A DNA stretch of 62,269 bases, filler included, from Jimgerdemannia flammicorona (taxonomy: Eukaryota), in NCBI GenBank assembly GCA_003990765.1. It is 3 parts of 3 records of this genome, joined end to end, with 100 filler letters (N's around TTAATTAATTAA, not from the genome) between each part and the next. Parts side by side here need not be neighbours in the genome. Positions count along the whole stretch, not along the records: positions 20,792 to 41,480 come from RBNJ01001609.1; 2 more parts are not named here. One strand, 5' to 3'. The position numbers were made by a program, and so were the translations under genes. Shown one piece after another: positions 20,692 to 60,600 of the stretch (within the stretch, counting starts at the first letter, position 1; the number at the start of each line of letters is the position of its first letter). The notes under the pieces are model-generated. The model ran no database searches. It was not told where the DNA came from and saw nothing but the letters and a program-made list of their open reading frames with translations.

Positions 20692-20791
20692 NNNNNNNNN
20701 NNNNNNNNNNNNNNNNNNNNNNNNNNNNNNNNNNNTTAATTAATTAANNNNNNNNNNNNNNNNNNNNNNNNNNNNNNNNNNNNNNNNNNNN
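20692..20791. other. Assembly spacer (N run with TTAATTAATTAA six-frame stop linker)
   Basis: Seen directly; identical spacer at 41481-41580. Confidence 0.97.
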
Positions 20792-21610
20792 ATCCAAGGA
20801 ATTTGAGTTTCTGTTTTCCAAAGTAGCATTTCTTTGCATTCAGTCTCAAGTGATTCTTGCGGGTGAGCTTGAAGAATTCCTCTAGGTGGTGCAGGTGTTC
20901 TTCGAAATTTGCTGAATAGATGTTGGAATCATCCATATATACAATCAGAGAGTGGTGGATCAGGGAGGCATAGACCGAATTCATCATCCTCCGGAAGGTG
21001 GGGGGTGCATTGCAAAGTCCAAAGTGTATTCGAAGGTATTCAAACAGTTTTCCTAAAGCAAGGAAGGCTGTCTTTTGAATGTCCTTGGGGTCCATGGGGA
21101 TCTCATGGAATCCTGTGAAGAGGTCCATACTGCTGAAATATCTGGCATCTTGTAACTGGTCCAAAAGGTCATCGATTCTGGGCAAAGGATTAGCATCCTT
21201 TTCAGTGACTGAGTTGAGTTTTCTGTAATCCATGCAGAGTCTCCATCCTCCTTTCTTTGGTACAATAAGTATAGGGCTGGCCCAGGGGCTGGTAGAGGCT
21301 CGGATAACTCCATTGTCTAAAAGTTCTTGAATGTGCTCCTTTTCAAATGTTTTCAAATAATGGGATATTCTATAGGGTTTCTGCTGGATGGGTGTTGCGC
21401 TTCCTGTATTTATGCTGTGGTGATATGATGGATTGTATGGCAGGTTGCCATAATCGGTAGTGAAGATATCTTGATATTTGTTGAGAAGTTCTACTAATTG
21501 TTGCTGTTGTTGAGGTGTCAATTCTTCTCCAATGTTGGTGGAAGGCTTCACTGTCTCCTGGGTCGCAGAGGGGCCTTTCCTTTCTTCTGGGACCTTTTGC
21601 TGTTTCCTGA
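20792..21610 (-). CDS. pol: Reverse transcriptase (Ty3/Gypsy), partial
   Basis: SPWASPILIVPKK, RLCMDYRKLN, PLPRIDD, FGLCNAP and YMDD motifs. Confidence 0.93.
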
Positions 21611-21959
21611 TAGGTTTAGTTCATAAACTTCCCTATGAGTTCAGTTGAGAAAAGGCACCAGATGTCCTATGATGGTTCCTTTTAGCAGGATGATGGTCTC
21701 CCAACTTTGGTTGGTTTCTCGAGAGTGTACTGGGTTCAACTTGTCAGGGAATGTGTGTCTCTCTATGTCCAAGTGTGGGATATCTTCCTTGGGTTTAAAG
21801 AAAAGGTTCCTGGGGTCGGGTGGTGCAAATATTTCGAAGGTGGCTTGTTCTCCAGGCTCCAGGATAAGATTCTTGTGTAGTCTGACTGGTTGCTGATATA
21901 CTTGCTGGGGAACATTCCCCTTGAGGTGGTTGACTTGAAGGAGATGTACCTCTTTTCTG

Positions 21960-22370
21960 TCTGAACTTCCAAATCCTTTGGCTTGCCTTGTTCCTTCAGT
22001 TAGTTCTGAGACTTCCTGTAACTGTGGGGTCTTGACTTTCATGAAGACTGCTTGGGCAAACTTCTGTCCTCTAATGATTTGGTGCCATTCTGTACTGCTG
22101 TTGTGTAGGATGACCTTGATTTCGCCTGTATATCCAGGGTCAATGGTTCCTCCTTCTACAGTTATCCCTTGTCTGGCAAGTCCAGACCTTGAGGTCAATT
22201 GAATATAAGCTCCTTGAGGTGGCTGCATGGCTAATCCGGTTCTGACCATGAAAGTTTTTCCAGGTTTGATGGATTCTTCCTCTAAACAGTGAAGATCATA
22301 TCCTACATCCTCTGGGTGGGCTTTGGTCGGGGGTTTGGCCTTGGGGTGCAGCAGGGCATACTGAGCAATA
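21960..22370 (-). CDS. dut: Trimeric dUTPase domain within the family A polyprotein
   Basis: All five motifs: VGYDL, SRSGLA, GTIDPGYTGEI, FAQ, RQAKGFGSS. Confidence 0.92.
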
Positions 22371-23699
22371 TCTTTGCTGAGTTTGGGCTTCCCTAAGGCT
22401 GAAGCTCCACTGGCAGAAAGCCTCCAAGCTCTAAGGTTGAGGTGTGGCCATCTGGCTCCAGTAGAGGGGTCCCGGAGATAATTGATTCCCCTTCTTCCTG
22501 TAGGATCAAGGGCTTCCATGAAGTTGGTGGCATCTTCTGCCCATCCTTGGCAGGTTGCATTTCTGATAAGAGCTAGGATATCTTCTCCCAAATCATAGAT
22601 CTTGAGAATTCTTTTCCCAGGCTTCTTGGTCTGGCTTTTTCGAATCTGGCTTTTTCAGATCTGGCTTCGGTTATCTCCTTTCTTCAGAGTGTGTACTGCA
22701 ACATCATGACTGAGGTGAATCTTCTGATGTCTGCAGTCTCGGCAGTCAGGGTGTCTTCCATGGTTGCAATATCCCATTGCTCGGAAATGGTATTCCTGGC
22801 TGTTTATCTCCTGTTGTCTTGGGAATCGGTACCCATCTTGATCATAGATTGGGGGAAGGATAGACAAGGGGTATATTTCTGTTTGGGTGAAGAAGCCTTG
22901 TCCCCTAAATCAACTTTGCAGCCTTGTGGTGACTTCTTGGAAGGTGGTAGACTGTGCAAGAGTAGTTGGGGGTTCTGGTCTCTGAGGTCTCTGTCTTTCT
23001 TGTTGATCCAATAGATGATACTGATAGCAGTAGTCTCGGGGAGAGTGGAAGACCATTTGATGTAGATATCTTCCTAGCCAAAAAGCTTTCTCTTGGTGGG
23101 TTTCTTTCTTGGGGATAATGGTGATAGTACTGGGTCCTTCCTCTGTATTCCAGGGGTCATTGTCTTCAGGTGGTATCCAGCGAGGGTCATCCCAGGGGAT
23201 GAGTTCGGGGACTTCTCCTTCATCAGGTGCTTCTTGTTCAGGAACTTCTTGGTCAGAAGTTTCTTCTTCCTCAGATGATTCTTGGCCCCAAATTGCTTGT
23301 ACTTCTGCAGCTTCAGTTGCAGGTGTTTCTGGAACATGTCTGCATTTCTTCTTCTTTCTTCTGCATTCTGGGCAGGCTGCACCAGGTGATTTCCTTTTTC
23401 CCATGATCTTGGAGGAGTGCTCGGGACACTTGTGTCTCTTGAGGCATATAGGGCATCCTTTAGCTTCCCCTGCAATGGCTCCAATGGTGATAGGGATAGT
23501 GTTCTTGGCCCACACATTGTCTTCTGGTCTGTCATCCACTACGTTGATTCGTGGATTGAGTCTGGGATCATTTCCATCTTCAGATTCTTCTTCCTCTTCT
23601 GTAGTAGACTCCTCACTACTGGTATATTCTTCTTGAATGGTGACCTTCTTCTTCTTCTTCGATTGCTCATAGCTGGTCACCTTTACTCTATACTTCTTG

Positions 23700-29475: not shown

Positions 29476-32400
29476 TCATGGAATTCTGTCCGACATCGTG
29501 ACTTCTATTGTTGAAGATTCCAAGACCAACGAAGACATATCTACTACGCCATTTAAATTCTGGCGCATACTGTCTGGAATCGTAACCTCTGTGATGCGTG
29601 GAATGTCCATCAGGGCCTTAGGGGCATCATGAGCAGGTTGCAGGAGAAGCTGGTCATGTACCAATTTTAGAGTGCTAACTATCCCTTCCATCTCAGGTCG
29701 CTCCTTCGGTTGCGCTGATCCACAACATCGGTACAAATTTTGATATTCAGGGCTGGGACACAGTGGCAGAGGCTTCAAACGGTTAGGGTTGACTGCTCTC
29801 TCATTGCTGCCAGGAAATTCGGATGACGCGATCTCCCAACACAAGACACCAAAGCCAAAAATGTCGTGCAGGTAGTTGTATGGCGGGGGTGGCTTCTTCC
29901 AGAGTTCAGGAGCGATGTATGGAAGTCGACCGTAGATCTTGATTCGGAATTCTGGGCGTTGTGCCTCCTCGAAAGTGCGGCTCAGCCCAAAGTCTGTGAG
30001 AAGAGCAGACCCATCCTGTACAAAAATATAATCGACAATGAGCATACATCCTCAGCCAATGTAAATATAAGGAATTCGAGATGTACTTACATCGTCTATA
30101 AGAATGTTGCCACTATGCATATCGCAATGAATTATATGGTATTGGTGAAGGAATTGTAACCCTTGTGCAATATCCAATGCGATCTTGACCTTTTCAGCCC
30201 AAGGCATACTAATAAATGCCTTGTTGTAATGAATATATTTCTGAAGACACGATTGGGCCCTGCGCATGACAATATAGTTCAAGGTGACATCTCTGTAAAA
30301 GAAATAGAAAGCGGGTATATATGAGCATACCACAAATATTTTTCATCTTTGCAATATTAGAATTTTAACGATTTGAAATTCATCAAGACATACCTTGTAA
30401 TACCATAGAATTGGACAATATTCGGATGACCTGTCACCATCTTTAGAATGCGCACTTCTTGTATTATATCTGTCGTATGCTTCAGTTGCGATTTGACAGC
30501 TACTTCTACTTTTATATCTTTTTCGATGCTCAAAACACCCATGTGGATATCTGCAAACCCACCCCTGCAAGCATTCTTTTGAGTGAAGAACAGATTTTCA
30601 AAATCAATAATGTCTAACCCCAATTGCTCCAGCTCCTTGTTGATATCAATTCCTGTCATATGTTGCAAAAGATTCATTGAATAACCTATGTGAACCAACT
30701 GCAGAAATTAGATAGTGTAATAAATTCAACGCACGAACCTATTTTTCTTTGGTTTTCTAGGCCTAGCCAGACACTCTCCAATAGTTCCCAGTTGAAGTCA
30801 CGATCATCTTCGGCGGACTTCAGGTCTCGCAACCTGGACACCACGGCATCTATGGGAGGCCGAACAAGTATGTCGGTATCCCAACATACCTCATAGAGTC
30901 GAATGTAATCAAGCGGGACATTTGTCATCGGTAATACAGTCTCTGTGTCCATTCCTGGTCGGAGGCCGTCCATGATTTTTTCGAGGAGGTCTGGATTGTA
31001 GTTGTCCTCAAATGCACGCTTCTCATGTAGAATTTCCCACAACAGAATTCCAAGGCTGTAAATATCGCTCTTCTCGAAATCTACTTGCACTCCATCATAA
31101 TAGTCCAGCCGTTCCCGGATGCGAGCGTTTGTCGTTGAGCAGGTGAGTCCGCTCAGACTGAAGCCAGTCAGTGCCACCGAGCCATCTTTGCGGATTAGAA
31201 CATTCTCGCAATCCAACCCTAATAAAATATTTGTCACTAACATACATCATATAAGGGTACAAGAACTATTCTATACATTTAGAGCATAAATGGAAAATGT
31301 AAATACCTCGATGTACGATTCCTTTGACATGCATATGCTGTAATCCACATACCAAACCATATGCCATTTTTATTCTTGTTGACCATGGCAACGAAATGTT
31401 TTTTTTTACATCCCAAAAGTCATGCATATTTCCCCTCTCTGCATACTCCAGAATAATTTCGTATTGGTTGGTTTCAGGATTCCTATACAGAATAATCAAA
31501 ATGTTGATTATTGATATCAACAATATGCCTCTTTCTAAAATGACAATTTTATAACTTACTTGGTAATACCATAAAACTGAATAATGTGATCATGCTCTCC
31601 CAATGTTATAAAAACTTGAACATCATGAACCATATCGCTCAAATCCAAAAAATCCTTAACAGCAACAAATGGCGATTCATGTCCTTTCCAACTAGCCCTG
31701 TACACTGTCCCATAGTTACCGCGGCCAATTATACCGACTTTTATAAGGTCTCCAAAGGGTATTGTACGAATGGTCTCCGTGGCCAAGGCGTTGACAATCC
31801 AGTCATGTGGCTCGGCTTCATTTGATTGAATCTGTAATTCCATTTCTCCCATAATAACCCTGTCATATGCGAGTTTTGCAGATTCCTTGGTATCAGTTGA
31901 AGTTGGGCTGACCTTCCACTGCGGATCGTTGCTGCCTGAGGTGTTGTGATCGTCTTCTATGGCAGGTGGAACACGCTTAGGAATATATCGGTGGGCGAAC
32001 CAGTGCGTCCTGGCTGCATCCGGCTTGCCAGTGCGGCCTTTTTTCAGATTTTGTTCGCGCTGTTGTTTCAACTTCTGGCGTACTGTGGCTAATTCCTGGT
32101 TTGTTTGCCTGACTTGATAGGTATGCACGCAGAAAATCGGTATGTAAAAGCAAAACAACCAACCTTCGAAACAAATTACAACAAATATAAAACTTGCAGC
32201 TCAAACCAAGAGAATATGCCCTACAGCTGCAGATAACTGTTTCATAATTTGACATACCATTGATATTTGGCTTAGCCGAAGTCTTGTTTTGTTTCAAAGC
32301 ATTGTCTATGGCATCTGTCATCTCGCTGTCAATGTTGTTGTCTAAAAACGAACAGAGGATAGGGATGAACAAACATGCATAAATTAGCTGCATCGAATTA

Positions 32401-35085
32401 CCCACATTTAAACAGTTACATACTGATTTCTGACATACTTCTGAGATCCAGTTGGGTAAGAGTTGTGTTTTGCTTCAGAAGCTCAGCCAGAGCACGGGCA
32501 CCCTCATTGCCGATTTTGTTATCTATGAATACTCAGAGGTCAGCTGGATCGAATCAATCACATTCAAACAGTCACACACTGATTTCCGACATACAGGAGA
32601 GTGCCAGCTGGGTAAGGGTCGTGTTCTGCTTCAGAGACTCAGCCAGAGCACAGGCACCCTCTACTTTGATCATATTAACTGAAAATGCACAAAATGCGCA
32701 CAGGTCAGCTGGATCAACACCCCACATTCAAACAGTCACACTGATTTCCGACATACTTTCGAGCCTCAGTTGAGCGAGGGCCGCGTTCTGCTTCAGAGAC
32801 TCGGCCAGAGCACGGGCACCTTCAGAGCCGATTTGGTTGTCTAAATGAATACGCATAAGTCAGCTGAATGGAATCACCCGCATTCAAACAGTCACATACT
32901 GATTTCCGACATACTTTCGAGATTCAACTGGGTAAGCGTCGTGTTCTGCTTCAGAGACTCGGCCAGAGCATGGGCACCCTCATATTTGATTCTATTCACT
33001 GAAAAATGTACAAATACGCATGGGTCAGCTGGATCGAATCACCCAAATTCAAACAGTCACACACTGATTCCGACATACAGGAGAGATTCAGCTGGATAAG
33101 GGTCGTGTTCTGCTTCAGAGACTCAGCCAGAGCACGGACACCCTCATCGCCGATGCTATTCCCTGAAAATGCACAAATACGCAAGGTCAGCTGGATTGAA
33201 TCACCCACATTAAACAGTCACACACTGATTTCTGACATACCTCGGAGATTCAGCTGGGTAAGGGTTGTATTCTTCTTCAGAGTCTCGGCCAGAGCACAGG
33301 CACCCTCAGCCCCGAATCTATTCCCTGAAAAATGCACAAAATATGCACAAGTCAGCTGGATCGAATCACCCACATTCAAACAGTCATGCACTGATTTCCG
33401 ACATACTTTTGAGATTCAGCTGGGCAAGGGTCGCGTTCTGCTCGAGAGACTCGGCCAGAACACGGGTACCCTTAACGCCGATGCTATTCCCTGAAAATGC
33501 ATAAATACGCAAGGTCAGATGGATCGAATCACCCACATTCAAACAGTCACACACTGATTTCCGACATACTTTCGAGATTCAGCTTGGTAAGGGCCGTGTT
33601 CTGCTCCAGAGACTCGGCCAGAGCACGACCACCCTCAGCGCCGATTTTGTTATCTAAATGAATATGCACAAGTCAGCTGGATCGAATCACTCATATTCAA
33701 ACAGTCACACTAATTTCTGACATACTCTCGAGATTCAGCTGGGTAAGGGTCGTGTTCTGCTTCAGAGACTCGGCTAGAGCACAGGCACCCTCATCGCCGA
33801 TGTTATTATTCAAGTAAGAAAAACCTGAAAAATGCACAAATACACACAGGTCAAGGATCGCATCACCCACATTCAAACAGTCACACACTGATTTCCGACA
33901 TACTTTCGAGATTCAGTTGGGTAAGGGTCGTGTTCTGCTTCAGAGACTCGGCGAGAGCACGGGCACCCTCATGGCCGATGCTATTCCCTGATAAATGCAC
34001 AAATACGCGGGATCGAATTACACACATTCAAGTAGTCACACACTGATTTCCGACATAATTAATTACGTACCTCCGAGATTCAGCTGGGTAAGGGTTGTGT
34101 TCTGCTTCAGAGACTCAGCCAGAGCACGGGCACCCTCAACTTTGATGATATTTACTGAAAAATGCACAAAATATGCACAGGTCAACTGGATCGAAGCACC
34201 AACATTCAAACAGTCACACTGATTTCCGACATACTTTCGAGATTCAGCTGGGTGAGGGTCGCGTTCTGCTTCAGAGACTCGGCCAGAGCACGGGCACCTT
34301 CAGCGCCGATTTGGTTGTCTAAATGAATACGCACAGGTCAGTTGGATGGAATCATCCACATTCAAACAGTCACATGCTGATTTCCGACATACTAAAGAGA
34401 TTCAGCTGAGTAAGCGTCGTGTTCTGCTTCAGAGACTCGGCCAGAACACGGGCACCCTTAGCGCCGATTTCGTTATCTAAATGGATGGATACGCACAAGT
34501 CAGCTGGAACGAATCACCCACATTCAAAAAGTCGCACACTGATATCCAACATACTGGAGAGATTCAGTTGGGTAAGCGTCGTATTCTGCTTCAGAGACTC
34601 GGCCAGAACACGGGCACCCTTAGCGCCGATTTCGTTATCTAAATGGATACGCACAGGTCAGCTGGATCGAATCACCCACATTCAAATGGTCACAGTGATT
34701 TCTGACATACCTTTGAGATTCAGCTGGGTAAGGGTCGTGTTCTGTTTCAGAGACTCGGCCAGAGCATAGGCACCCTTATAGTCGATGTTATTCCCTGAAA
34801 ATGCGCAGTCAGCTTGATCGAATCGCCCATATTCAAACAGCCACACACTGATTTCTGACATACATTCGAGATTCAGCTGGGTAAGGGTCGTGTTCTGCTT
34901 CAGAGACTCGGCCAGTGCGAGTACACTCTCAGCGTCAATACGCCTGCCTGAAGTTGAATAGATGGATGAGCAAATACGCACAGATCGCCAATTGGAACTC
35001 ACCAGACAGCTGCAATCAACAGTTCGCTCTGTTCAAACATACCTTCGAGGTTCAGCGCAGTCTGGGTCGTGAGCAGTGTTCGCAT
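29476..35085 (-). CDS. Multi-exon RNI/NLRC3-like LRR (16 repeats) + pseudokinase + TKL-like kinase protein
   Basis: ATG 35085 (MRTLLTTQTALNLE|gtatgt), TATA-like run at ~35177-35187. LRR exons NxIGxEGAxALAESLKQNTTLTQLNL. Kinase domain 1 at ~30800-31745 (GRGNYG, VAVK, HRG, GFS). Kinase domain 2 at ~29660-30570 (RGGFA, VAVK, HCDMHSGN, DFG, APE). Stop at 29476. Exon boundaries inferred from GT-AG sites. Confidence 0.85.
32330..34950 (-). repeat. Tandem array of 16 exon+intron units (~155-180 bp), each carrying an 84-nt LRR exon (one 99 nt)
   Basis: The core ctgcttcagagactc (or a close variant) recurs at ~32470, 32626, 32787, 32945, 33109, 33270, 33437, 33600, 33756, 33934, 34101, 34265, 34423, 34585, 34740 and 34894. 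Confidence 0.95.
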
Positions 35086-36470: not shown

Positions 36471-37893
36471 ATATTGCGGATAATGGATAATGGTGATAAT
36501 GGCGACAATGGTGATAATAGGGATAATGAGGATATTAGGATAATAGGGATATCACATTAGATTGTGCTAAATCATATGCAACATGACGTGAACAAGACGT
36601 CCTGGCCTGGTATCTCGGGACGTCCCATCCCGTTTGGGTCACTAATCTCAACCATGAAGCCGCCGGCAAGCTGGTTGAACTTGAGGGAAAGATTGCCTGG
36701 TACGGAGCAGTACAAACCGACAGTATGCAGAACCTGATGCTCCAACAGGACATGGGCAATGTTGAAAGTGGCACAGGTGGACATGGTGCTTTGCATGTCC
36801 ATTGAGATGAGGTTTATTAGCGATGTGATCCTTATCAAGCATTCGGACATCTTTTTCAAGGGTTTCCAAGAGTGACAACCCCGGCGAAAACGGAACCCAT
36901 GTCAAAGTTTCTGCCACTGACGATTCACAGGGAGAGCCATTCCTGTAACCTTAAAGAAGACGAAGAGAACGGAACGGTCGCCGCCTAGGTCTTTATCAAA
37001 GGCTTTTATCAAGGCTGCTCAGAAGGTATGGTAAAAGGTTCTTTAGAGGCCCTCTTGTCGGTTTAGTCTAGTCTCGCCTGGCGGCAACTGCGGCAAATAA
37101 TGCCAACTGGCCTTTTACTGCTCGAGCCCAACGGAGATGTTTGCGTGAGTTCACAAACGGAGGGAGCGTCAACTGCCAAAACTTTCGCTCGGGATTGACA
37201 CCGTCAAACGCACAAACGGCAAAAAAAAAAAAAAAAAAAAAAAAAACACTACTCCGCGGTACACGACGTCCACTAACTTCGACATTCCACCAATAGAGGC
37301 ACTTTTCCAGGCCATTCCGCCTGCAGCTCCGCTGTGTAACATCTTGTCGATCATGTACATGCATTCCGTTCACGAACAATAGTGGCTATGCAAAGAACTT
37401 TACACGAAATCCCACTCTTTCGGGGGTGCTCAAGTTCCCATGACAATTAGAAAACAACGGTCGAGTTGAACTTGATTTGCAAGGGTCCATATTATAGCGA
37501 TCAAGGTTGAGACGTTGATGTGCATGACTTAGAAGCAGCGAGATGGAGTTTGAAATAGGGTTTGTGCGACAAATACTCCCCGCAGTTACAGGTCTATATT
37601 TATTTGCATCACTTTTTCAGCATTTCGATCCAGACACATGATCATGCGCCGAAAATGAAATTGTAATATGATACCTCCCGTTCGGTTGCGCAACCATGAC
37701 CGCAGAATTCACCTTTTTATATATAGGGTTCTGAGTTTTATTTTGGTGCATGAGGGAGAACCCCAGATGTGATAATCATTTCCAAGCTTGAATTGGGTGA
37801 GACACGTGAAGTGACTTTTCTGTGTACCCACTTATCTGCATTGCCACTATCGCCATTCCCCCCCCCCCCTTCGCTCACAAATTTACAATTGCT

Positions 37894-40258
37894 ATGATAC
37901 GCTGCAACCACCCGTTCCTGTCATCATTGTTCCTCCTCCTAATCCTAGCCATTTCAACCGTATGCTTAATCCCGCCAGGAAGGGACTCCGCCGGCATCGC
38001 CTTACTGAACAATACCATATGGGTTTTTGGTGGCGCAGTCTCGGATAACAACGGCGGTTACGACCCCTCCAGCAGCCTTTATTCACTAGATATCTCACAA
38101 TCCTGGTCAACGTCCTCGCCGAATTGGATTGGTCATGACGCCGACATCAATTCCACCATAGTCAGCGGTCGCATCCGGCCAAATATGCAGGTCGGCCCGG
38201 ACGGTACCTCGCTCTGGGTCTACGGCGGCCAGCCGACGAACGCCACGAGCGCCAACCTTTTCCTATGTTATGACACTACCACCCATACATGGTCCACTGT
38301 GGCCTTTGCAGGTGCAATCCGATTGCAAGGGTTCAACGCTGTTAAAAACGCGCGTGGTGTCATCTTCTTTTTTGGTGGAGTGACAGACGAAACTTCACTG
38401 GACGCCTGGGCGCGGAACGACGCCGTCTTCAAGATCGATCCCACTATGAAAACTTGGAGCACTACATCGGTGGCTAACGGGTATCCCGGGCGAGTGATGG
38501 CTACAGCTACCTTAGTAAGGTAAGCTTTTGCTTTGGCTCTTCGTTTCCTTTATTTATCGATTGTTGCTTATCGTTCTTTTCCACGCAGTGACACGAAGGT
38601 TTACATCATTGGTGGCGCTGTGCAGACCCCGACCACGGGGGTACTAGTGTCAATCAATAATGTCACTGTGTATGACACCGTCGCCGGCACTTGGTCCTGG
38701 TCTATGACTACGGGGAGCCAGCTCCCACTCAATCGTTCTGGGCACGCGGCCGAGCTTAGTGAGTATCTGTCGGCAATCTTTTCTGTGCCATTGTCGTCGC
38801 CCTAATTCACATCAAACTGAATAAGACTCTACCGCGACTTAGGTTATGATGGCAAAAGCATTATCATCTTTGGTGGTAACGGCGGCAGTGCAGTTGGCTA
38901 TTTCAGCGATGTATGGACTCTCGATGTCAACCTATTTCAGTGGACATCCCCTACCGTTACGGGTTCCGGTCCGAAGACAGGAATCTATGGCATGAATTGT
39001 AGGAATCTTTTAACTCCTTTGCAATTTTATGTAAAATCTCTCGAATAACATTTGATAACTTGGAGTATGCTGTTCGATTTTAGCCCTATTAATCGGGTAC
39101 CAGATGCTGATAATGTTTGGTACTACTCTTTGTTACTTTATTAAACCGTCTACTGATGTAAAACTTTATCCTTGCATTAATCATTTGTTAATCTATGTTC
39201 TCGCTCCACCTTTAGGCTCTGGTCTGGCAACTTCTACTTACTATAACGACGTTTATGTCCTCGATACCAAGAACTGGGCCTGGACAACCGCTTTCGCCGC
39301 CGTGTCGGTACAAACAGAAGCTCCGACCCAGACAGGAATCGTAGCGCCAACGACAGGTGTGAGTGCGGTCGGTACTAACGGTACCAGCGGTAGTAACGGT
39401 GGCATCGGTGATAAAGGTGGCATCGGTGGCATCGGTGGCATCGGGGGATTGGTGGGCATTATTTGTGGATTGCTCTCTCTCATTGGCATCATCTCATTTA
39501 TTACATGGACCGTCCGGCGCAATAGGCGGGCAGATGCTGCGGTCAAGGCAAATGAAAACCCGGAATTGAGCACGATGTTAAAACCGAACGAGAATGCGGA
39601 GGTTGCAGAGTTGCCGACCAAAGATCCCCCCCCTCCAATTACCCCAAACACAGCGGTCGAGAATGCGGAGGATGCAGAGTTGCCGACCAAAGATCCCCCC
39701 CCTCCAATTACCCCAAACACAGCGGTCGCGCGCGGCAATGTCGTCGATCCACACACCACCGCCACCGCACCCTCCACGGTGAACCCATCGGACCCACACC
39801 TTCCACAATCGAGCATGATACCGTCAGATGCGATCATTTTCCAGACTGGCCCTGCTGTCATTGGAGCGTACTCCGCGCCGCATCAACCATACTACTACCC
39901 GGTACCACACGTCCAACCTAACGCGAACCCTGTCCTCCCCGCCAGCATGTACTACTACCCCGGCACTCCACAGTTTCAACCGGGTTTCTACTACCCCCCG
40001 CCGTTACCGCCGCCGCATGGGACAATCCTTCAGGATAATTCGCACACCCCTGGTGACGGCACCTACGTTGTGGGTGGGCGATACCCTCCGCCAAACTCTT
40101 ATACTCCATCCTTGCACCATGTAGACATCCCGGCCCCACCCATGTACTCTGCACAGTCAGCGGAAGCACCACAGGTTGTTTTGCCCAGACCCCACCAGAG
40201 GATGGAGGAGACCGTTGAGCTACAGGAGGAAAGACCAGCAACGAGAGGGGATGCGTGA
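37894..40258 (+). CDS. Signal peptide + Kelch (galactose-oxidase-like beta-propeller) single-pass membrane protein with Pro/Tyr-rich tail
   Basis: Five in-frame exons (37894-38519, 38589-38758, 38843-38998, 39083-39118, 39216-40258). Repeated VFGG/VYGG/FFGG/IIGG/IFGG...W Kelch motifs. Hydrophobic N-terminus. TM segment LVGIICGLLSLIGIISFITWTV followed by RRNRR. Confidence 0.9.
39590..39727 (+). repeat. 69-bp in-frame tandem duplication (ENAExAELPTKDPPPPITPNTAV x2)
   Basis: Seen directly; one substitution between copies. Confidence 0.92.
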
Positions 40259-46632: not shown

Positions 46633-49600
46633 GATATTTCTTGAGTCAGTTTCGATGAATGGTGGTGGGGATTATTGTGCTTGAGAGTTTTCATAGCCAA
46701 AAGGTGGTACCTTTTATATCTTGCACGAGGTAAGGTCCTTCCCACTTGGGCTCAAGTTTTTGTAACCATGAAGCTTTGACCATATTCTGATACACCAGGA
46801 CTTTGTCTCCTATCTTGATAATCTCCAAGAGTTTGTGGGTCTTTTCTACATTCCTCCATTGTAGTGTCTGCACCTTCGTTATGTAATCCTCAGTCTTCTT
46901 CCTGATTTGGTGTAGTCTCCATATTTCCATGTCCACATGTTTCCATACAGTATCTCCATTGGATGATAAGGTTCCCTGAGAACATTCTTCTCTGAACAGT
47001 ATTTCTTGAGGGGTAAAGTGGGTACTTTGTGATCGGATATCTCAAAGAGCAGATAATGCTATTGGTAGATAGTAATCCCAGTTCTCATAGTTATCGCAGA
47101 TCTTGGCAATAATATTCTTGAGGGTTTTGTTGGTTCTTTCTACTTGGCCATTTCCTTGAGGGTGATATGCTATAGTCCGAATATGCTGGATCTTGTACTT
47201 CTTGTAGAGAACTTCGAAGAACTGGTTCACGAATTCTGTTCCTCTATCTGTAGTTACTTGTGTTGGGGTCTTGAACTGGCAGATAATTTCCTTGTGGAAG
47301 AAATCGGTGATTGACTGTGCATTGACTTCCATAAGGGGTCCCGCTTCTATCCATTTTGTAAAAAGGTCTACAATGATGATGATGTATCAGTTGCCAGTCA
47401 AGGTCAAGGGTAGGGGGCTGATTATATCCATTGCAATGTGGGCGAATAGTACTGGTTCTATGTGTGCTGATCCTGGGGCTTGATTTTGTTGGTCTTGTTT
47501 CTGTTTCTGGCATTTGTTGCAGGTCTTAACAAATTGTCTGATATCTTCCTCCATCCCTGGCCACCATATTGTTCTTCTTGCTTTGTTGTATGTATTTGTT
47601 CCTCCTAGGTGGTCAAGTTTGTGTACTGATTTCATTGCTTGCTCCTTCTTGTGTTCTGGTATGACTAGTAGTTTTCCTTTCTTTAGTATTTCTCCATTGG
47701 TTTCGAATTGTTTCTATGTTCTATTGATAATCATTTGTGTCCATTCTTCCAGATGTTGGGGCATCTTTCACTGTCCCAGGTATGTAATAATTCCATAGTA
47801 GAGCTCCTTATTCATGGTGATTTTGTGGGGGTGGGGTCCTTCGGGGTGTCCATGAGAGGGCATCTGCATTGACATTGGTTCTTCCAGAGTGATGTACGAT
47901 GGTTACATCATAAGCTTACAACTTCATTATCCATCTGGCATAGATTCCTTTGGGTTGTCCAGTTGTCAGTAGCTAGGTGAGAGCTAAGTGGTCCATTTGG
48001 ATGGTGAAGTGTCTTCCAGCCAAGTAGTAGTGGAACTTTCTATGGCCCAGATGACTGCAAGGCATTCCAACTTGTAGGATTCATATTCTTTTTCAGCTCC
48101 TCGGGTTCCGTGGCTGAGGTATGCGATGACATACTCTACTTTATCTTTCTTTTGAGCTAGGACTGCTTCTAGTTCTTGTGTACTTGCATCAGTCTGTAGG
48201 ATGAATTCTTGAGTCCAGTCAGGTCTTCTGAGGATGGGTGCCTGGGTCAGTCTGACCTTGAGTTCATCAAATGCTTTTTGTTATCTGCCAGTCCACTGGA
48301 ACTTGGTGTCCTTCTTGTTAAGTTCATAGATTGGTCCTGCGATGTTGGAGAATCCTCTAATAAATCTGCGATAATAGGAGGCGAGTCCTATGAAGGCTTG
48401 GGCTTCTGTAACAGTGGTGGGTCTTGGGTATGCTGCCACTACTTGTATCTTGAGAGGGTCCGTGTGTGTTCCATCTCAATTGATAATATGACCGAGATAG
48501 GAGATCTCAATTTCTGTGAACTTGCAATTCTTGGATTTGATGTAAAGGCCATGTTGTCTTAGTCTCTCCATTATCTGCTGTATGTGCTGCAGATGTTCCT
48601 CAGGTGTCTTGCTGTAGATGGTTACATCATCGACGTAGACCATCATCTATCTTCCCATGTCATAGCAGAAGATTTTTTTCATCATTTGCTGGAAGCTTGC
48701 TGGTGCGTTGCACATTCCAAATGGCATTCGTAGGTAGATGTAGGTTCCATCTGGAGTGATGAAAGCTGACTTTTCACTTGCCATGTCTGTGAGTCCAATT
48801 TGGTGGAATTCTGAGTATAAGTCCAAGGTGCTGTAGTATTGTGCTTCATCTCCCAGTGTTATGAGGATGTCATTGATGAGGGGCAGTGGTTGGCGATCCT
48901 TCTTGGTAGCCATGTTGAGTTTTCTGTAGTCAACGCAGAGTCTTGGGGCGAATTCTCCAGGCTTACTACCTTTTTTTGGGGCCAGTACAACAGGTGAGGA
49001 CCAGGGGCTGCTTGCTTCTTTAATGATACCCGCTTCTTCCATCTGCTTGATTTCTTCTCTGAGCCATTCTTAGTAGGCTGGCGGGACAGGTCTTGCTTTC
49101 TGATAAATTGGTTTGGTGTCTCCAGTATCTACTTCATGATAGTAGTGTGGGGTCTTTCCTTTAATATCCTTGAAATCTGTAGCAAGGACATCTTCGAATT
49201 CATAGAGTATTTTCCTGAGTTCTTTCTTGAGTGGAAATTCATTTCTGATGGTGTAGCTGTGCTTGCTTGTGTTCTTATGCTCAAGTTCGGTAATCTTGGT
49301 GTTAGCGAATACTTCACTTCCTATGGATCCAAATCCTTTCTTTCCCCTTCTTGTTTCCTCCAGCTTCTTAACTTCTATGATCTTTGGTTGTAGGATCGGA
49401 AAGATCAACATTTGTGCCAATTGGTCCTTCTTCTTGACTGGAAATGGGATTGTAGGATTGTGATTCCTAGCAATGAGTAGAATTTCTCCAGTGTAGTCTG
49501 AATCGATGACTCCTCCTTTGATTGTAATTTCGCTTCTAGCCAGGCTGTTTCTTGTCTTGAGAATCCTGACATGATCCTTTGGAATGGTCATCTCCAATCC

Positions 49601-51790
49601 GGTTGCAAGTAGGGTGGTTGTCTGGGGTTCCAGTATGGTTTCTTCTACTGTAGTGATGTCCATTCCGGCTGCATTTTCTGACTTGTATTCTGGCAAGACT
49701 GTATCAGGGTGGATTCTTTGAATCTTGACCTTGATTTCTTCTTCGTCATCACTGTCCTCCAGGAGAGCTGGTGGTTCATCATCTTCCTCCTTCTCTTCTT
49801 CCCTGATCTGTTTTTTGAGAGCTTTCTGCCTTTTTGCCTGGTGGATCTTCCTGATTCCAATGGTGCACTGGTAGCAATCATTGACGTGCTCCATGCAGTA
49901 CATCTTGATCCCGTGAGGACAGACTCCTTGTGGGGCATAACCTTCTGTGATCTTCTTACACCATTCTTCTTCACTCATCCATCCGACTTTCTTCTTCTTT
50001 GGAGTAGTCACTATATAAGCTTCCTCCTGCTCACTCTCTTCTTCCTCTATGTCAGGCAGGACTCCTTTGTTGACATTGATGGGAATTCATATCTTCTGTC
50101 CCCGGTAGGTGATCTGCATCTTCTGGATGTTGAGGTCGATTACTGCCTTGGCTTTGTGAAGCCATTGATTGCCAATAAGGATGTCATAGTTGGTGGCATT
50201 GGTTACAATTATATCTACTAGGATGGTTGCTCCTCCAATCTTGATGGGAATGTCTCGGATCTTTTCCAGAGGTGTGGCTCTTGTACCATCAGCTGTGACG
50301 AACACCAGCTTAGTTGCCTCTTCTACATCTCAACCTAGGTAGTCTGCTGCCTTTTTGCTGAGGAGACATCCTCCTGCTCCCATATCAATGATGGCCTCAA
50401 AGATTCTATCTTCAATTTAACATGTGGCATATGCAGAGGTTTTGCGATTGTCCTTACTTTCTTCTCCTGAGTCCTCTTGAGCATTATTGGCCTTGGTTAT
50501 CTTCCATCCCTGTTCCTTAGTTGTTTCGGCAAGTCCAAACCTCATTTGCTATCTGAATGTAGGGATTTCTGCAAGCTGGCCAAAGGTTGCATTGACCTTT
50601 TGTTGGCTGAGATCCTTGAAGATATCATACTTGAAGGTCTTGGTTTTGTGAAGCTTCTTCTCTTTTTCTCCTTCACTGACTGGAGTGGTTCCTTGGATGA
50701 TATCTTGAACTGCTTGCTCCAGCTCTGTATCTTGGTCTATCTCTTCGGCTTGGCTTTCTGTAGCAGTTTCCATCTGCCTTTCCACTGGGTTCTTCTTGGG
50801 TCTTCCTGGTGGTCTCTTGTAGGGTTCTTTGTGAGCATTCTTCTTGGTGGTCTGAGCAGAATAGGCCTCCCATTCTTCTTCATCAGAATCTCCAATCTCC
50901 TCAAAGGTAATTGTATTGGCCTGCTCCTTGTTTCGTGTGCCATTGCTTGGTTGAGCCTTGCGCTTGGTTTCACTCATGCATTTATAGGAGTAGTGGCCTT
51001 CTTCTCCACAAGTATAGCAGGTACCTTTCTTCTTGTCTGAGGTGGCGGTGAACTTCTGAACAGGGCAGCAGTCTCTTCCTTGAATTTCCTTTACCACATC
51101 TCCCAGGTGGGCAGTCATTTTGGCAAACCTTTTGGCGAGTTCCTTCATAGGGTCACTGTTCTTTTGCTGCTCTGTAGCTTTTGGCTGAGGTGTGTTTCGA
51201 TTGATCATTATGGTAGGGATCATGCCAGTTGCCTTGGGTGCCTCAATTCTGACTTCTGTGACCCTTTTCATTGTATGGTCTTGTGGATATCTGGCTATCT
51301 AGTATCGCTGAGCATAGGTGACCTTCTGTGGCAGATCCAGAATCACTGGTTATGAGCAGATAGCCATGGCTATTTCTGGATGGACTCCTTTCATGAAGGT
51401 TGCTTCAGCTACTTGATCTCAGATAGCAGCAGCATAATCTGCAAGGATTATCTGATATCGAATTCTGGTATAGAATGTATTTGGATCCTCGCTCATTCCT
51501 TGGCATGTTGTATTGAGCTGATCCTTCAGGGGTTGCTTGATCTCATCTGTATAATATGTATTTCGGAGCCAGGTCTTCTGTGCTATCAGTATAGCATCGG
51601 CATCATTTTCTGCATGGGTTGCAGCTGTGAATGCTACTCTGGCAGAACCTCATAGGCTGAAGGGCATGAGGGCTACTTGCTGTACTGCTGTCAGAGTCCT
51701 TACAGCAGCATACTGCTCGAAATCATCAATGAAGGTGATGATCGATTCATCTGAGGTATATCCATGGAATACTGGTGGTCTCATATCCAT
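46622..51790 (-). pseudogene. Family B gag-pol polyprotein (gag through RT in one frame), disrupted
   Basis: ORF pieces 50549-51271, 50087-50305, 49070-50011 and 48647-49042 share one frame with ATG 51790. Integrase pieces at 46691-47635. Confidence 0.9.
49320..49735 (-). CDS. dut: Trimeric dUTPase domain, family B
   Basis: AAGMDI, TRNSLA, GGVIDSDYTGEI, LAQ, RRGKKGFGSIG. Confidence 0.92.
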
Positions 51791-57304: not shown

Positions 57305-60189
57305 GGTATAAGAAGAGATATATCTTGAGGTAATTGATATGTACTGGTGTCTTCAGGGTTCATCCATCCATACTTCTTAAATAGATGCTGGTTCCTTTAA
57401 TATTATGTACAAGATAAGGTCCTTCCCATTTGGGCTCCAATTTGGTGGCAAAGTTTGTTTCAATCATACTTCTCCAGACTAGTACTTGATCTCCAATCTT
57501 GATCTCCTGATCTTTCCATTTCTGATTATAATACTTCTTTTGTCTTTCTTGAGCTTTGATAATCTGACCTCTGGCTTGATTACATAACTGTTCTGCCTTC
57601 TTGAGAAGGTCTCTGAATTTCTCATGGTCAGCAGTTCTGGTTTTCTTGGCAAATATAGTTTTGAATGGCTTTTATTTGATGGAGACAGCAGGGGTGTTCC
57701 AAATTTCCCATAGGATCTCAGATAAGCAGAGGTCCCAATTGGTGGAGTTGACTCAGGCAAGTCCTTTCTTGATGGTCTGGTTCATTCTCTCTGTCATGCC
57801 ATTCGTCTGAGGGTAGTATGATGTAGTCCTTTTGAGGTGGATCTTGTGAATTTGGGCATAACTTGTGATTATATTATTGATGAATTCTGTGCCTCAGTCA
57901 GAGATAAGTTCTTCTGGGGGTCTATATCTGAGTGTAAGTCCATGGAAGAGGCCTATAATGGTTAAGGCATCTGCAATTTCCATTGGAAAAGCCTTTGGCC
58001 ACTTGGTCAGATGTTCTACAAATATGAGGATATATTTGTTTCTTCTTGGTATAACTGGTAGAGGTCCAATTACATCTACTCTCTATCTCTGAAGAATGTT
58101 GTCTGGTGGTATGATTGGTTGCAATGGTGCTAGATAGTTCTTCTTTCCTTAGTACTTCTGACAGATATCACATCTCTTAAGTATATCCCAGACTTGTGTT
58201 CTGAGGTTGGGCCAATGTTGGTGTGTTGTTCACAACTTCTCTTCTATGTTTGCTTGTCCTTGGTGGGCTTTCTGATATTCTTTTTGAATGAGATCTTCTT
58301 GTGCCTTGATGGTCTGAGAAGCTTCCTTTAGGGTGTAGTTCCTCAAGACACCCTTCTTCTGGTTCATTGGGGCTGGCAGGAAAGTATATCAACATTGTTG
58401 TAGGCTTTCCCTGCTTTGTGAATAATGGTGATTTTGTAATCCTGTAGGATAAGGATCCAGCAGGCTAGAATTCCAGTAGATTCCTTATAGTTGAATAACC
58501 ATTTGAGGGCTGCATAGTCTGTGATCAGGATGAACCTTTTTCAATAAGGTAGTGTTTGAACAGGGTGACTGCCTATATGACTGCAAGGTATTCTAGTTTG
58601 TTGCTACCATAGTTTGTCTACTGTTGATTGGTAGCTCTGCTTGTATAAGCTATCACATGGTGCTGTTGATCAGGTCCTTCTTGGGCCAGAACTTCCCTGA
58701 GACTATCTTTAGAAGCATCTGTATATAAGATGAATAGCTTCTGTATATTGGGGCGCACAAGGATTGGTGCTGTAGTTATGTGGTTCTTGAGTTCTCTGAA
58801 GGTTTTTTCTTGTGTTTCTGTCCATTTAAATGGTACTTCTTTCTTGAGAAGGATCTGGATTGGGGCAGCGATTTGGGCAAAGTCTTTGATAAACCTTCTG
58901 TAGTAGGATACTAGCATCAGGAATGATAGTGTTTCCTTTTGGGTTTTTGGATACTGGCCAATTGTTGATCTTCTTGGTCTTCTTTAGGTCTGTATGGGTT
59001 CTTTCTTTTGAAACTATGAATCCAAGGAATTTGAGTTTCTGTTTCCCAAAGTAGCATTTCATTGCATTCAGTCTCAAGTGATTCTTGTGGGTGAGTTTGA
59101 ATAATTCCTCTAGGTAGTACAGGTGTTCTTCAAAATTTGCTGAATAGATGTTGGAATCATTCATGTATACAATCAGGCAATGGTGGATCAAGGGGGCATA
59201 GACTGAATTCATCATCCTCTGAAAGGTGGGGGGTGCATTGCAGAGTCCAATGGGATTTCAGAGGTATTCAAACAGTTTTTCTAGAGTAAGGAAGGCTGTC
59301 TTTTGAATGTCCTTGGGGTCCATGGGGATCTTATGGAATCCTGTGAAGAGATCCATACTGCTGAAATATCTGGCATCTTGTAACTGATCCAAGAGGTCAT
59401 CAATTCTGGGCAGAGGATAGGCATCCTTTTTGGTGACTAAATTGAGTTTCCTGTAATCTACACAGAGTCTCCATCCTCCTTTCTTTGGTACAATAAGTAT
59501 AGGGCTGCCCCAGGGGCTAGTAGAGGGTCGGATGACCCCATTGTCTAAGAGTTCTTGAATGTGCTCCTTTTTGAATATTTTCAGGTGATGGGGTATTCTA
59601 TAGGGTTTCTGTTGGATAGGTGTTGCATTTCCTATATTTATTCTGTGGTGATATGATGGATTGTATGGCAGGTTGCCATAATTGATAGTGAAGATATCTT
59701 GATATTTATTGAGAAGTTCTACTAGTTGTTGCTGTTGTTGAGGTGTCAATTCTTCTCCAATGTTAGTAGAAGGCTTCACTGTCTCCTGGGTCGCAGAGGG
59801 GCCTTTCCTTTCTTCTGGGACCTTTTGCCATTTCCTGATAGGTTTAGTTCATAAACTTCTCTATGGGTTCAGTTGAGAAAAGGCACCAGATGTCCTATGA
59901 TGGTTCCTTTTGGCAAGATGATGGTTTCTGAACTTTGGTTGGTCACTCGGGAGTGTACTGGATTCATCTTGTCAGGGAATGTGTATCCCTCTATGTCCAG
60001 GTGTAGGATGTCTTCCTTGGGTTCAAAGAAAAGGTTCCTGAGATTGGGTGGTATAAAGATTTTGAAGGTAGTTTGTTCTCCAGGCTCCAGGATAAGATTC
60101 TTATACAGTCTGACTAGTTGCCAGTACACTTGCTGGGGAACATTCCTCTTGAGGTAGTTGACTTGAAGGAGATGTACTTCCTTCCTGTC

Positions 60190-60600
60190 TGAACTTCCAA
60201 ATCCCTTGGTTTGTCTTGTTACTTCAGTTAGTTCAGAGAATTCTTATAACTGTGGGGTCTTGACCTTTATGAAGACTGCTTGGGCAATCTTCTGTCCTCT
60301 AATGATTTGGTGCCATTCTACACTACTATTGTATAGAATAACCTTGATTCCACCAGTATATCATAGGTCAATCATTCCTCCTTCCACAGTTATTCCTTGT
60401 CTGGCAAGTCTGGACCTTGAGGTTAGTTGGATGTAAGATCCTTGGGGTGGCTGCATGGCTAATCTGGTTCTGATCATAAAGGTTCTTCCAGGTTTGATAG
60501 ATTCATCCTTCAGACTGTGGAGATCATACCCTACATCTTCTGAGTGGGCTTTGGTCAGGGGTTTGGCCTTGGGATGTAGCAGGGCATACTGGGCAATATT
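60190..60600 (-). pseudogene. dut: dUTPase domain, family A copy 2 (disrupted)
   Basis: VGYDL, SRSRLA, GGMIDL*YTGGI, IAQ, KGFGSS. Confidence 0.88.

Follow-up and report, generated by a model that had tools for sequence, protein, structure and literature searches.

The window, a 62,269-nucleotide stretch (filler included) from Jimgerdemannia flammicorona, contains a minus-strand gene at 35085-29476 that comprises 24 exons and 3696 coding bases, equivalent to 1231 codons and a stop. The reading frame is open from end to end with one terminal stop, and all 23 introns have GT..AG borders. Along the protein, a leucine-rich repeat (LRR) domain is followed by a linker, a predicted pseudokinase and a kinase. 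The repeat array stands as given in the preliminary description of this DNA except for its strand, which is corrected here to minus. Retrotransposon remnants are abundant in the window, and a TATA-like run was noticed by eye approximately 90 nt upstream of exon 1. For two different genes of the window, the closest Atlas clusters occur most often in Mucoromycota. The features of the locus, all on the minus strand, are as follows.

29476..35085, minus: whole gene (open frame and splice sites; several borders agree with public contigs)
35043..35085, minus: exon 1, 43 nt, ATG and partial LRR, ends in phase 1
34864..34947, minus: LRR exon 2, 84 nt, phase 1-1, divergent first repeat
34711..34794, minus: LRR exon 3, 84 nt, phase 1-1, head type A
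34555..34638, minus: LRR exon 4, 84 nt, phase 1-1, head type B
34393..34476, minus: LRR exon 5, 84 nt, phase 1-1, head type B
34235..34318, minus: LRR exon 6, 84 nt, phase 1-1, head type B
34071..34154, minus: LRR exon 7, 84 nt, phase 1-1, head type C
33904..33987, minus: LRR exon 8, 84 nt, phase 1-1, head type A
33726..33824, minus: LRR exon 9, 99 nt, phase 1-1, 5' extension
33570..33653, minus: LRR exon 10, 84 nt, phase 1-1, head type B
33407..33490, minus: LRR exon 11, 84 nt, phase 1-1, head type A
33241..33324, minus: LRR exon 12, 84 nt, phase 1-1, head type A
33079..33162, minus: LRR exon 13, 84 nt, phase 1-1, head type A
32915..32998, minus: LRR exon 14, 84 nt, phase 1-1, head type C
32757..32840, minus: LRR exon 15, 84 nt, phase 1-1, head type B
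32595..32678, minus: LRR exon 16, 84 nt, phase 1-1, head type C
32439..32522, minus: LRR exon 17, 84 nt, phase 1-1, head type B
32258..32341, minus: LRR exon 18, 84 nt, phase 1-1, degenerate capping repeat
32523..34863, minus: 15 homologous introns (2-16), 69-83 nt, from alignments
31560..32112, minus: exon 19, 553 nt, linker and N-lobe of kinase domain 1 (PF07714 E 3e-4, below cut-off)
30739..31482, minus: exons 20-21 (31482-31307, 31218-30739), rest of kinase domain 1 (PF07714 30.2 bits)
29476..30652, minus: exons 22-24 (30652-30394, 30292-30091, 30015-29476), kinase domain 2 (PF07714 27.4 and 43.3 bits)

The LRR domain is spread over 17 exons (exons 2-18, 34947-32258), of which 16 are 84 nt long and one is 99 nt. 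Each begins with two bases and ends with one base of a split codon, placing all 17 in phase 1 at both ends, as had been proposed; the example exon quoted there is exon 13 (33162-33079). The donors are GTATGT (16 exons) and GTACGT (one), and the acceptors CAG (nine) and TAG (eight); two further exon calls in the minus-strand parse were rejected as artefacts of a second GTATGT within introns 14 and 17. Tandem Repeats Finder reports a single array (32386-34915; period 156, 15.6 copies, 79% matches), and a 21-base core occurs 15 times with up to three mismatches, against 0.01 expected by chance, a count reached in none of 100 shuffles. The 28-residue units follow the consensus LxxLxLxxNxIgxxGaxxLaxxLkxNxx, and the junction codon shared by two exons encodes the second x of LxLxxN, within the motif to which it had been assigned. 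The in-frame 15-nt extension noted earlier is at the 5' end of exon 9 (33824-33810), adding five residues between the β-strand and the conserved Asn; by eye, the 84-nt position of this exon is preceded by GA rather than AG, and it therefore has no canonical alternative acceptor.

Introns 2-16 all open with the donor GTATGT, have a branch site of CTGAC type and close with CAG or TAG. Their mean pairwise identity of 0.80 (105 pairs) bears out the homogeneity first ascribed to them, and implies that the array is either young or homogenised. Folding of five of the 15 introns gave no signal of RNA structure (z-scores of -0.43 to +1.27), and a search of Rfam gave no hits.

Both of the LRR exon peptides scanned (two of 17) match Pfam LRR_6, with scores of 19.7 and 20.6 bits that are below the single-repeat cut-off of 23.4. 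A profile built from the 17 exon peptides has eight matches among solved sequences, including the ribonuclease inhibitor (RI)-like entry 9y6s, which is the best, and entries 5irm and 5irl, which are labelled 'Uncharacterized protein' in the match table and which we take to be NOD2. LRR_6 is carried by all 24 library hits scanned. The nearest library proteins share just 43-54% identity over the LRR domain, so there is no orthologue with a known role among them.

In the second half of the protein, PF07714 was found above the cut-off in three of the four open reading frame pieces scanned. Kinase domain 1 has HRG for HRD and GFS for DFG, with loss of both catalytic aspartates, and is thus predicted to be a pseudokinase. 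Kinase domain 2 possesses the VAVK lysine, HCD..N, DFG and APE; this motif set predicts an active kinase, and HCD places it in the non-RD class, which is often linked to innate immune receptors. The solved chains nearest to it are TK/TKL kinases, and judged by its sequence, the domain is probably an active non-RD kinase of TK/TKL type. No Roc-COR GTPase was detected in the pieces scanned. The protein has no signal peptide, its sole hydrophobic stretch appearing to be intronic, and is probably cytosolic.

Contigs assembled from two public runs, presumed to be RNA, match the kinase exons with no differences. One contig joint (30292->30394) corresponds exactly to a predicted intron. Another (33986->34070) likewise coincides exactly with a predicted intron, intron 7 (34070-33988, 83 nt), skipping 83 bases with CT..AC ends and the cut placed at +1. 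A further contig is error-free over 31559-32107, beyond which it runs into sequence that is not adjacent in the genome. The gene is intact and apparently transcribed.

The distribution of diversity was determined over repeats 3-17 (n = 15). Nucleotide diversity is 0.158 in the introns (72 columns) and, in the exon core, 0.171 at third positions and 0.098 at first and second positions. Per exon column it amounts to 0.348 over bases 1-20, 0.12 over bases 21-80 and 0.617 over bases 81-84, in agreement with the earlier observation that variation is concentrated at exon ends; all of the end motifs reported there (NLE, NLG, NLS, NLF, NLK, NLR and DLR; NQI, NKI, NEI, NSI, NRF, NII and NMI) were found. 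At the protein level, the variation lies in five codons: the last exon codon, the codon split at the junction, and the second, fourth and fifth codons of the exon that follows. Amino-acid identity between repeats is 0.22 at these positions and 0.83 elsewhere. The value of pN is 0.59 at the five codons and 0.089 at the other 23, with a pS of 0.25 over all codons; since the five were picked post hoc from the same data, this choice biases every comparison except that with intron and synonymous sites. In RI-type LRR structures these positions would form the end of the β-strand and the following loop, the usual binding face. The consensus and these structures suggest that the variable residues face a ligand, in which case they would set binding specificity, and their excess of amino-acid change points to selection as its cause.

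The exon heads fall into three types, A (six exons), B (six) and C (three), each tied to a matching 3' end of the preceding intron. The 3' part of the introns has a diversity of 0.25, compared with approximately 0.12 for the 5' part. Distances between repeats are uncorrelated from one segment to the neighbouring one, with the sole exception of the intron 3' part and the following exon head (r = 0.49, p = 0.0005). This mosaic pattern fits the recombination within the array that had been suggested from inspection, a process that would account for it. The preliminary description had also taken the residues at the junctions to be diversified; their diversity does outpace that of intron and synonymous sites, although part of the head variation consists of the three inherited types. 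As each head is inherited together with the 3' end of the intron before it, some of the head variation may reflect long-standing differences between subtypes that conversion does not erase, and not selection still at work.

Related arrays are present at four of 28 metagenome loci and represent three distinct sequences (L003, identical to L009; L017; and L019). All 12 complete exons parsed from them are 84 nt long and in phase 1, with an identical border. Intron identity is 0.70-0.71 within L003 and L017 and 0.54-0.62 between arrays, with a shuffled control at 0.51 +/- 0.03. Because these diverged relatives share the intron position (phase 1, at the second x of LxLxxN), it is older than the array. 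L003 carries an in-frame stop within one repeat exon.

The anatomy of the gene, the diversity pattern, the common architecture of the relatives and the exon-exon joins in contigs are direct observations. As their explanation, we favour, as likely, an array produced by tandem exon-plus-intron duplication, homogenised by recombination and under selection for diverse junction residues, in an LRR sensor kinase gene. Growth would have proceeded by tandem duplication of one 84-nt exon together with one intron of approximately 75 nt. Unequal crossing-over and short-tract gene conversion would maintain similarity among the exon cores and over most of each intron, and selection would hold the five codons around each splice junction different between repeats. 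The five variable residues would then set binding specificity, with the kinase pair relaying the signal, if the gene product is a sensor.

A different reading of the exon ends, which we regard as rather unlikely, is that their variation is a neutral relic of three old subtypes, in which mismatch-rich stretches block conversion and stay diverged. The linkage of types A, B and C (six, six and three exons) to matching intron 3' ends is in its favour, as is the higher diversity of the intron 3' part itself. However, the 4-base exon tail (0.62) lies between homogenised flanks, the core (0.115) and the 5' part of the next intron (0.114), with which it would be expected to be co-converted, and is uncorrelated with the rest. 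Differences within types also recur at the same codons: the heads of exons 6 and 15, and those of exons 8 and 13, are each one base apart, in both cases by a nonsynonymous change in codon 5. The heads of exons 4 and 5 are identical and their last codons are two bases apart. Moreover, the pN of 0.59 exceeds both neutral proxies (0.16 and 0.25), for which relaxed constraint alone is insufficient, and positions 2, 5 and 27 are among the five most variable in the relatives' 12 exons as well.

The cassette might instead serve alternative splicing, with skipping of sets of phase-1 exons yielding many isoforms, and new junction residues, from one gene; this we hold to be unlikely. As had been predicted, any set of LRR exons can be left out without loss of frame: all 17 preserve it, none of the 171 possible forward exon-to-exon joins creates a stop, and 13 different residues could arise at new junctions. 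The exons are also short (84 nt). Symmetric phase makes gain or loss of a unit harmless to the frame, whether by recombination or by splicing, but it is no sign of selection for skipping, as the in-frame duplication of an exon-plus-intron unit already forces it. The uniform, strong signals of these introns of 69-83 nt suit, on established knowledge, a mode of splicing in which the two sites are paired across the intron. Assembled contigs cannot resolve exon skipping in a repeat array; they give one clean constitutive joint there, and none of the 15 of 171 joints listed reads as skipping, which is unreadable in these because most carry replaced letters typical of paralogues. The exons outside the LRR domain are mostly not multiples of three (553, 176, 480, 259 and 202 nt), the same contrast as in human NLR genes, in which, from the text available, LRR exons are frame-preserving, most others are not, and exon 5 of NLRP3 is skipped (PMC6642158). 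Alternative splicing is a priori uncommon in fungi, and the portion available of a comparative survey gives intron retention as more frequent than skipping in all but one of the eukaryote species studied, and skipped exons as enriched for frame-preserving lengths only in animals (Grau-Bove 2018, PMC6142364).

That the array is instead a pseudogene or satellite-like expansion in surroundings rich in transposons, a duplicate in decay or without function that encodes no working protein, is very improbable: the retrotransposon remnants, the stop in one metagenome relative and the missing aspartates of kinase domain 1 would fit, but 1231 codons are open over 24 exons with 23 of 23 introns canonical, core first and second positions are less diverse (0.098) than third positions (0.171) or introns (0.158), and the public contigs show no differences and are joined at predicted intron borders.

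The gene shares features with several known systems. The 28-residue period and consensus are shared with RI and LRR_6 (PF13516), and the best solved match is RI-like; in RI, 28- and 29-residue repeats alternate with two repeats per exon, whereas here all units are of 28 residues, one per exon. An LRR sensor is fused to a TK/TKL-like kinase in ROCO/LRRK proteins and plant LRR receptor kinases; the present gene differs from the former in having no Roc-COR GTPase in the pieces scanned, and from the latter in its RI-type LRRs, rather than the 24-residue plant type, and in having no signal peptide. A dead kinase domain precedes a live one in JAKs, as the predicted pseudokinase does here, without FERM or SH2 domains. 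Lamprey variable lymphocyte receptors, for whose somatic assembly gene conversion draws on flanking cassettes, likewise use short LRR-encoding cassettes with variable residues toward the ligand, but the cassettes here are the exons of one germline gene.

Two of the features are already known: one 28-residue LRR per exon in human NOD/NLRC genes, and conserved repeats with hypervariable sites in fungal NLRs. The parallel with vertebrate NLRs drawn at the outset is real, in that most human NOD/NLRC genes, as far as the available text describes them, encode one 28-residue LRR per frame-preserving exon with the border fixed in the β-sheet (Hoss et al. 2019, PMC6642158). An 84-nt exon per RI-class LRR and a border fixed in the β-strand region are thus shared, the likeness of the border being taken from that description rather than from an alignment of residues or phase. 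The present gene is without NACHT, has a pseudokinase-kinase pair as its output and belongs to a fungal host, with introns of approximately 75 nt that are approximately 80% identical among themselves.

Fungal NLRs carry highly internally conserved WD, ANK and TPR repeats, and LRR is not found as a repeat type in the part of the survey available (Dyrka et al. 2014, PMC4986451; Paoletti et al. 2007, PMC1805685, for the conserved repeats). Near-identical tandem repeats in one gene, concerted evolution by repeat exchange, and few hypervariable positions with excess amino-acid change on a predicted binding face are, on these accounts, common to both. The repeats here are instead of the LRR type, each in its own exon with a homologous intron between, the partner is a kinase instead of a NOD, and the lineage is Mucoromycota-like rather than Dikarya.

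The gene carrying the leucine-rich repeat (LRR) array is encoded on the minus strand, as is the array itself, and could be modelled as 24 exons (35085–29476) forming a single open frame of 1,231 codons, with GT..AG at all 23 introns. The domain order is an LRR domain (approximately residues 1–495), a linker of approximately 125 residues and two kinase domains. At the nucleotide level the array is a tandem repeat at 32386–34915 with a period of 156, 15.6 copies and 79% matches, and a 21-base core occurs 15 times in it against 0.01 occurrences expected by chance.

LRR-encoding part of the gene model
35085–35043, minus strand: exon 1, which bears the ATG; with it the gene model begins 43 nt ahead of the array
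34947–32258, minus strand: 17 LRR exons (exons 2–18), 16 of them 84 nt long and one 99 nt
33824–33726, minus strand: exon 9, 99 nt, the sole LRR exon that is not 84 nt long

All 17 LRR exons have the phase 1-1, with two bases of a split codon at the start and one at the end, and in all 17 the exon border falls at the second x of LxLxxN. The donors of the LRR exons are GTATGT, except for one GTACGT, the acceptors are CAG or TAG, and most acceptors in the array have a branch site of the CTGAC type ahead of them; the intron style of the gene fits a fungus. The non-LRR exons (553, 176, 480, 259 and 202 nt) are mostly not multiples of three. The preliminary description had held that skipping of LRR exons keeps the frame, and this agrees with the uniform phase and with the 171 possible forward exon-to-exon joins, none of which creates a stop; the example exon, the end motifs and the 15-nt extension that it listed were all recovered among the parsed exons.

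Each of the 17 repeats spans 28 residues, with the consensus NxIGxEGARALAESLKQNTTLTQLNLx. This fits the RI class of LRRs (Pfam LRR_6, PF13516), for which PMC6642158 gives LxxLxLxx(N/C)xLxxxGxxxLxxxLxxxxx over 28–29 residues. Two of the 17 exons were scanned singly, and their LRR_6 scores, 19.7 and 20.6 bits, fall just short of the 23.4-bit cut-off. A profile built from the 17 exon peptides matches eight solved sequences, including an RI-like protein and the chains 5irm and 5irl, which we take to be NOD2, a name that is absent from the table of matches. In a representative library the same profile matches 10,615 LRR proteins, and LRR_6 is present in all 24 top matches scanned with Pfam. The best 150 of the 10,615 are general LRR_6 proteins in which the partner domains are RCC1, kinase, NACHT, TIR, Sel1 and SidE_PDE; no close paralogue of the gene was found among these 150, the top identity in the LRR domain being 43–54%. 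A homologue search with the C-lobe of the second kinase domain gave no match among 436 candidates. One library protein of 1,502 residues (P0007) has the unusual combination of RI-type LRRs, a kinase and a SidE-type phosphodiesterase domain, and its kinase is approximately 28–30% identical to each of the two kinase domains of the gene.

The Pfam family PF07714 scores above its 23.1-bit cut-off in three of four open reading frame (ORF) pieces (30.2, 27.4 and 43.3 bits), and the fourth piece scores 20.6. The first kinase domain has HRG for HRD and GFS for DFG, so that both catalytic aspartates are missing. The second retains the lysine, HCD..N, DFG and APE, and the PF07714 match together with the catalytic motifs identifies a protein kinase of the TK/TKL type. 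The nearest solved chains to this second domain are those of the TK/TKL kinases let-23, FGFR4, DLK and MLKL.

Three other identities for the gene were rejected. A plant-type LRR receptor kinase would have a signal peptide, extracellular LRRs and a transmembrane helix ahead of the kinase; against it speak an N-terminus that is not hydrophobic and the apparently intronic position of the only hydrophobic stretch. A kinase of the ROCO/LRRK group would have a Roc GTPase and COR between the LRRs and the kinase, and Pfam found neither in the linker exon (31560–32112), which gave only a weak kinase match. An NLR is excluded by the lack of a NOD domain: a Pfam scan of the four ORF pieces outside the LRRs returned kinase families only, with no NACHT or NB-ARC, and the gene next to it upstream, which is divergently oriented, encodes Kelch repeats.

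Two public sequencing runs, of a kind only presumed to be RNA, contain part of the gene (0.34 and 0.24 of the words), and 892 and 535 contigs could be placed at a likeness of at least 90%. Their contigs match kinase exons with 0 differences, and contig joints at 30292–30394 and 33986–34070 correspond to intron 22 and to intron 7 (83 nt, CT..AC on the plus strand). Among the joints listed (15 of 171), most have replaced letters; at many joints in the array these paralogue-like replacements fall in the variable stretch, which suggests that there are other loci with related repeats. The only hydrophobic stretch (32200–32113) sits upstream of the exon 19 acceptor, and contig ends at 32107 and 32112 coincide with that acceptor. 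These ends place the hydrophobic frame within intron 18, and the reading of the gene as a receptor kinase with a membrane helix was therefore rejected. Intron 18, on the minus strand, is the longest in the gene at 145 nt; use of an acceptor at 32199 or 32163 in it would give an in-frame stretch resembling a membrane helix and may produce a membrane-anchored isoform.

Variation among the repeats is distributed very unevenly. It was compared over repeats 3–17 (n = 15), the divergent first and last repeats being left out, and exons were divided into a head (bases 1–20), a core (bases 21–80) and a tail (bases 81–84).

Per-column diversity among repeats 3–17
Introns, 72 well-aligned columns: 0.158
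Exon core, third codon positions: 0.171
Exon core, first and second codon positions: 0.098
Exon bases 1–20: 0.348
Exon bases 81–84: 0.617

The concentration of variation at exon ends, as had been described, is thus evident from 0.348 and 0.617 at the two ends compared with 0.098–0.171 in the core, where nucleotide identity among repeats is 0.88. Most of the amino-acid variation lies in five codons, namely the last codon of an exon, the codon split by the junction and, in the exon that follows, codons 2, 4 and 5. Amino-acid identity among repeats is 0.72 overall, 0.22 at these five positions and 0.83 elsewhere. Selection on the repeats can be gauged against the homologous introns as a neutral reference within the gene itself, something that single-exon repeat arrays do not have. 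Nonsynonymous differences (pN) amount to 0.59 at the five codons and 0.089 over the other 23, with a pS of 0.25 over all codons; these values do not come from a formal codon model. The five codons were picked after the data had been seen, and what can be said free of that bias is that they lie two to four times above either neutral measure, the introns and the synonymous differences. Judged by the LxxLxLxxN consensus and by known RI complexes, the variable residues would lie at the end of the β-strand and in the following loop.

The four-base tail is a variable island, and the stretches on either side of it are homogenised (0.115 and 0.114); in exons 4 and 5 the heads are identical but the last codons differ by two bases. 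Heads fall into three sequence classes (A, B and C, with six, six and three exons), and with each class goes a corresponding 3′ end of the intron before it (Mantel r = 0.49, p = 0.0005). The distances of all other adjacent segment pairs are uncorrelated, which makes every unit a mosaic of the kind expected from repeated exchange. A functional RNA in the conserved introns was considered and rejected: folding gave no structure signal (z-scores from −0.43 to +1.27 in the 5 of 15 introns folded), and Rfam gave 0 matches at E up to 1.

The most economical account of these features combines duplication, concerted evolution and diversifying selection. A unit of exon and intron, inherited with its phase-1 intron, would have been duplicated in tandem and in frame; unequal crossing-over and short conversion tracts would then have driven concerted evolution of the units, and selection would maintain diversity among the residues at the β-strand end and in the loop after it. 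Phase symmetry results incidentally from this in-frame duplication. It makes the gain or loss of units harmless to the frame and is no demonstration of diversity based on splicing.

The preliminary description had gone further and interpreted the array as a substrate for combinatorial diversification; its observation is confirmed, and its interpretation is partly supported. That a germline cassette of phase-1 LRR exons acts as a diversity generator in this fungus, through exon skipping or through frequent unequal recombination that is somatic or between nuclei, appears unlikely to us. In organisms other than animals, retained introns are more common than skipped exons, and the latter show no enrichment in frame-preserving lengths (PMC6142364). 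Were the cassette such a generator, one LRR-pseudokinase-kinase gene would give many receptor variants, each with novel residues where exons join on the binding face, and, together with the contigs bearing related repeats, would point to LRR-based recognition of non-self or of partners in early-diverging fungi, in a system that has converged with the NLRs of animals and the VLRs of lampreys.

Related arrays were sought by scanning metagenome contigs with an 18-base core. Of the 28 loci obtained, 24 were rejected as chance single matches of the 18-mer, and four are related arrays with three distinct sequences (L003, which is identical to L009, L017 and L019). Their complete parsed exons are without exception (12 of 12) 84 nt long and of phase 1, with the border as in the window array, and positions 2, 5 and 27 are again among the five most variable. 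The introns measure 63–80 nt, besides two larger unresolved gaps in L019. Intron identity within arrays is 0.80 in the window and 0.70–0.71 in L003 and L017; it falls to 0.54–0.62 between arrays, and a shuffled control gives 0.51. The shared border and the dissimilar intron sequences indicate that the intron position is old and shared, and the likeness of introns within but not between arrays indicates that intron sequence has been homogenised or newly amplified in each array. One of the six 84-nt LRR exons of L003 (2803–2886, plus strand) has an in-frame stop within the conserved core, for which decay to a pseudogene, an error in sequencing or variation between strains may account.

The exon-per-repeat architecture of LRRs is itself already known, since it has been described for NOD/NLRC genes: according to Hoss et al. 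2019 (PMC6642158), most of these devote an exon to each 28-residue LRR, with a border whose place in the β-sheet is fixed, and their LRR exons preserve the frame. The gene resembles them in all of these respects, in keeping with the parallel to vertebrate NLRs drawn earlier. Unlike NLRs, it has a pseudokinase-kinase output in place of a NOD (NACHT or NB-ARC). A residue-level intron position for NLR LRR exons was not found in a literature search, and the text of PMC6642158 gives none. The survey of fungal NLR-like receptors by Dyrka et al. 2014 (PMC4986451) reports WD, ANK and TPR repeats and no LRRs, and quotes an identity of approximately 85% for WD repeats. Like such internally conserved repeats, those of the window gene are alike (amino-acid identity 0.72, or 0.83 outside the five positions) and have a few hypervariable codons with excess amino-acid change, at positions that the consensus places on the putative binding face.

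Both patterns come together at this locus in a fungal LRR-pseudokinase-kinase gene, with homologous introns between all repeats in addition. No published account of an LRR-kinase like this one from Mucoromycota or Glomeromycotina turned up in a literature search, which is weak evidence because subscription journals were mostly outside its coverage. A Mucoromycota-type fungus would have an RI/NOD-type LRR sensor that unites the evolutionary signature of fungal receptors with the gene structure of animal NOD/NLRC genes. The locus offers a test of whether the exon-per-repeat LRR architecture is ancient or convergent, and of whether a diversifying LRR receptor family exists in early-diverging, often plant-symbiotic fungi.

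For the kinase and the Kelch gene alike, the Atlas clusters that lie nearest occur most often in Mucoromycota. The other features of the window are as follows.

Surroundings of the LRR gene
37810–40255, plus strand: Kelch-repeat gene (Pfam), upstream neighbour of the LRR gene and divergently oriented
20736–22591, 48647–51271 and 58826–60819, minus strand: retrotransposon-like element in at least three copies, with a reverse transcriptase beside a dUTPase domain
1442–2659: further reverse transcriptase fragment

The spread of retrotransposon-like copies across the window places the LRR-kinase gene in a transposon-rich region, and one of the copies has a zinc-knuckle Gag piece. The G+C content ranges from 0.24 to 0.53 across 4-kb bins of 1–62269, the bodies of genes and transposons being richer in G+C and the spacers very rich in A+T. 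The 3′ part of the Kelch gene encodes a hydrophobic stretch and a proline-rich tail, and the gene contains a 69-nt tandem duplication (39589–39728, two copies, 98% identical) as well as repeats of 9 and 18 nt.
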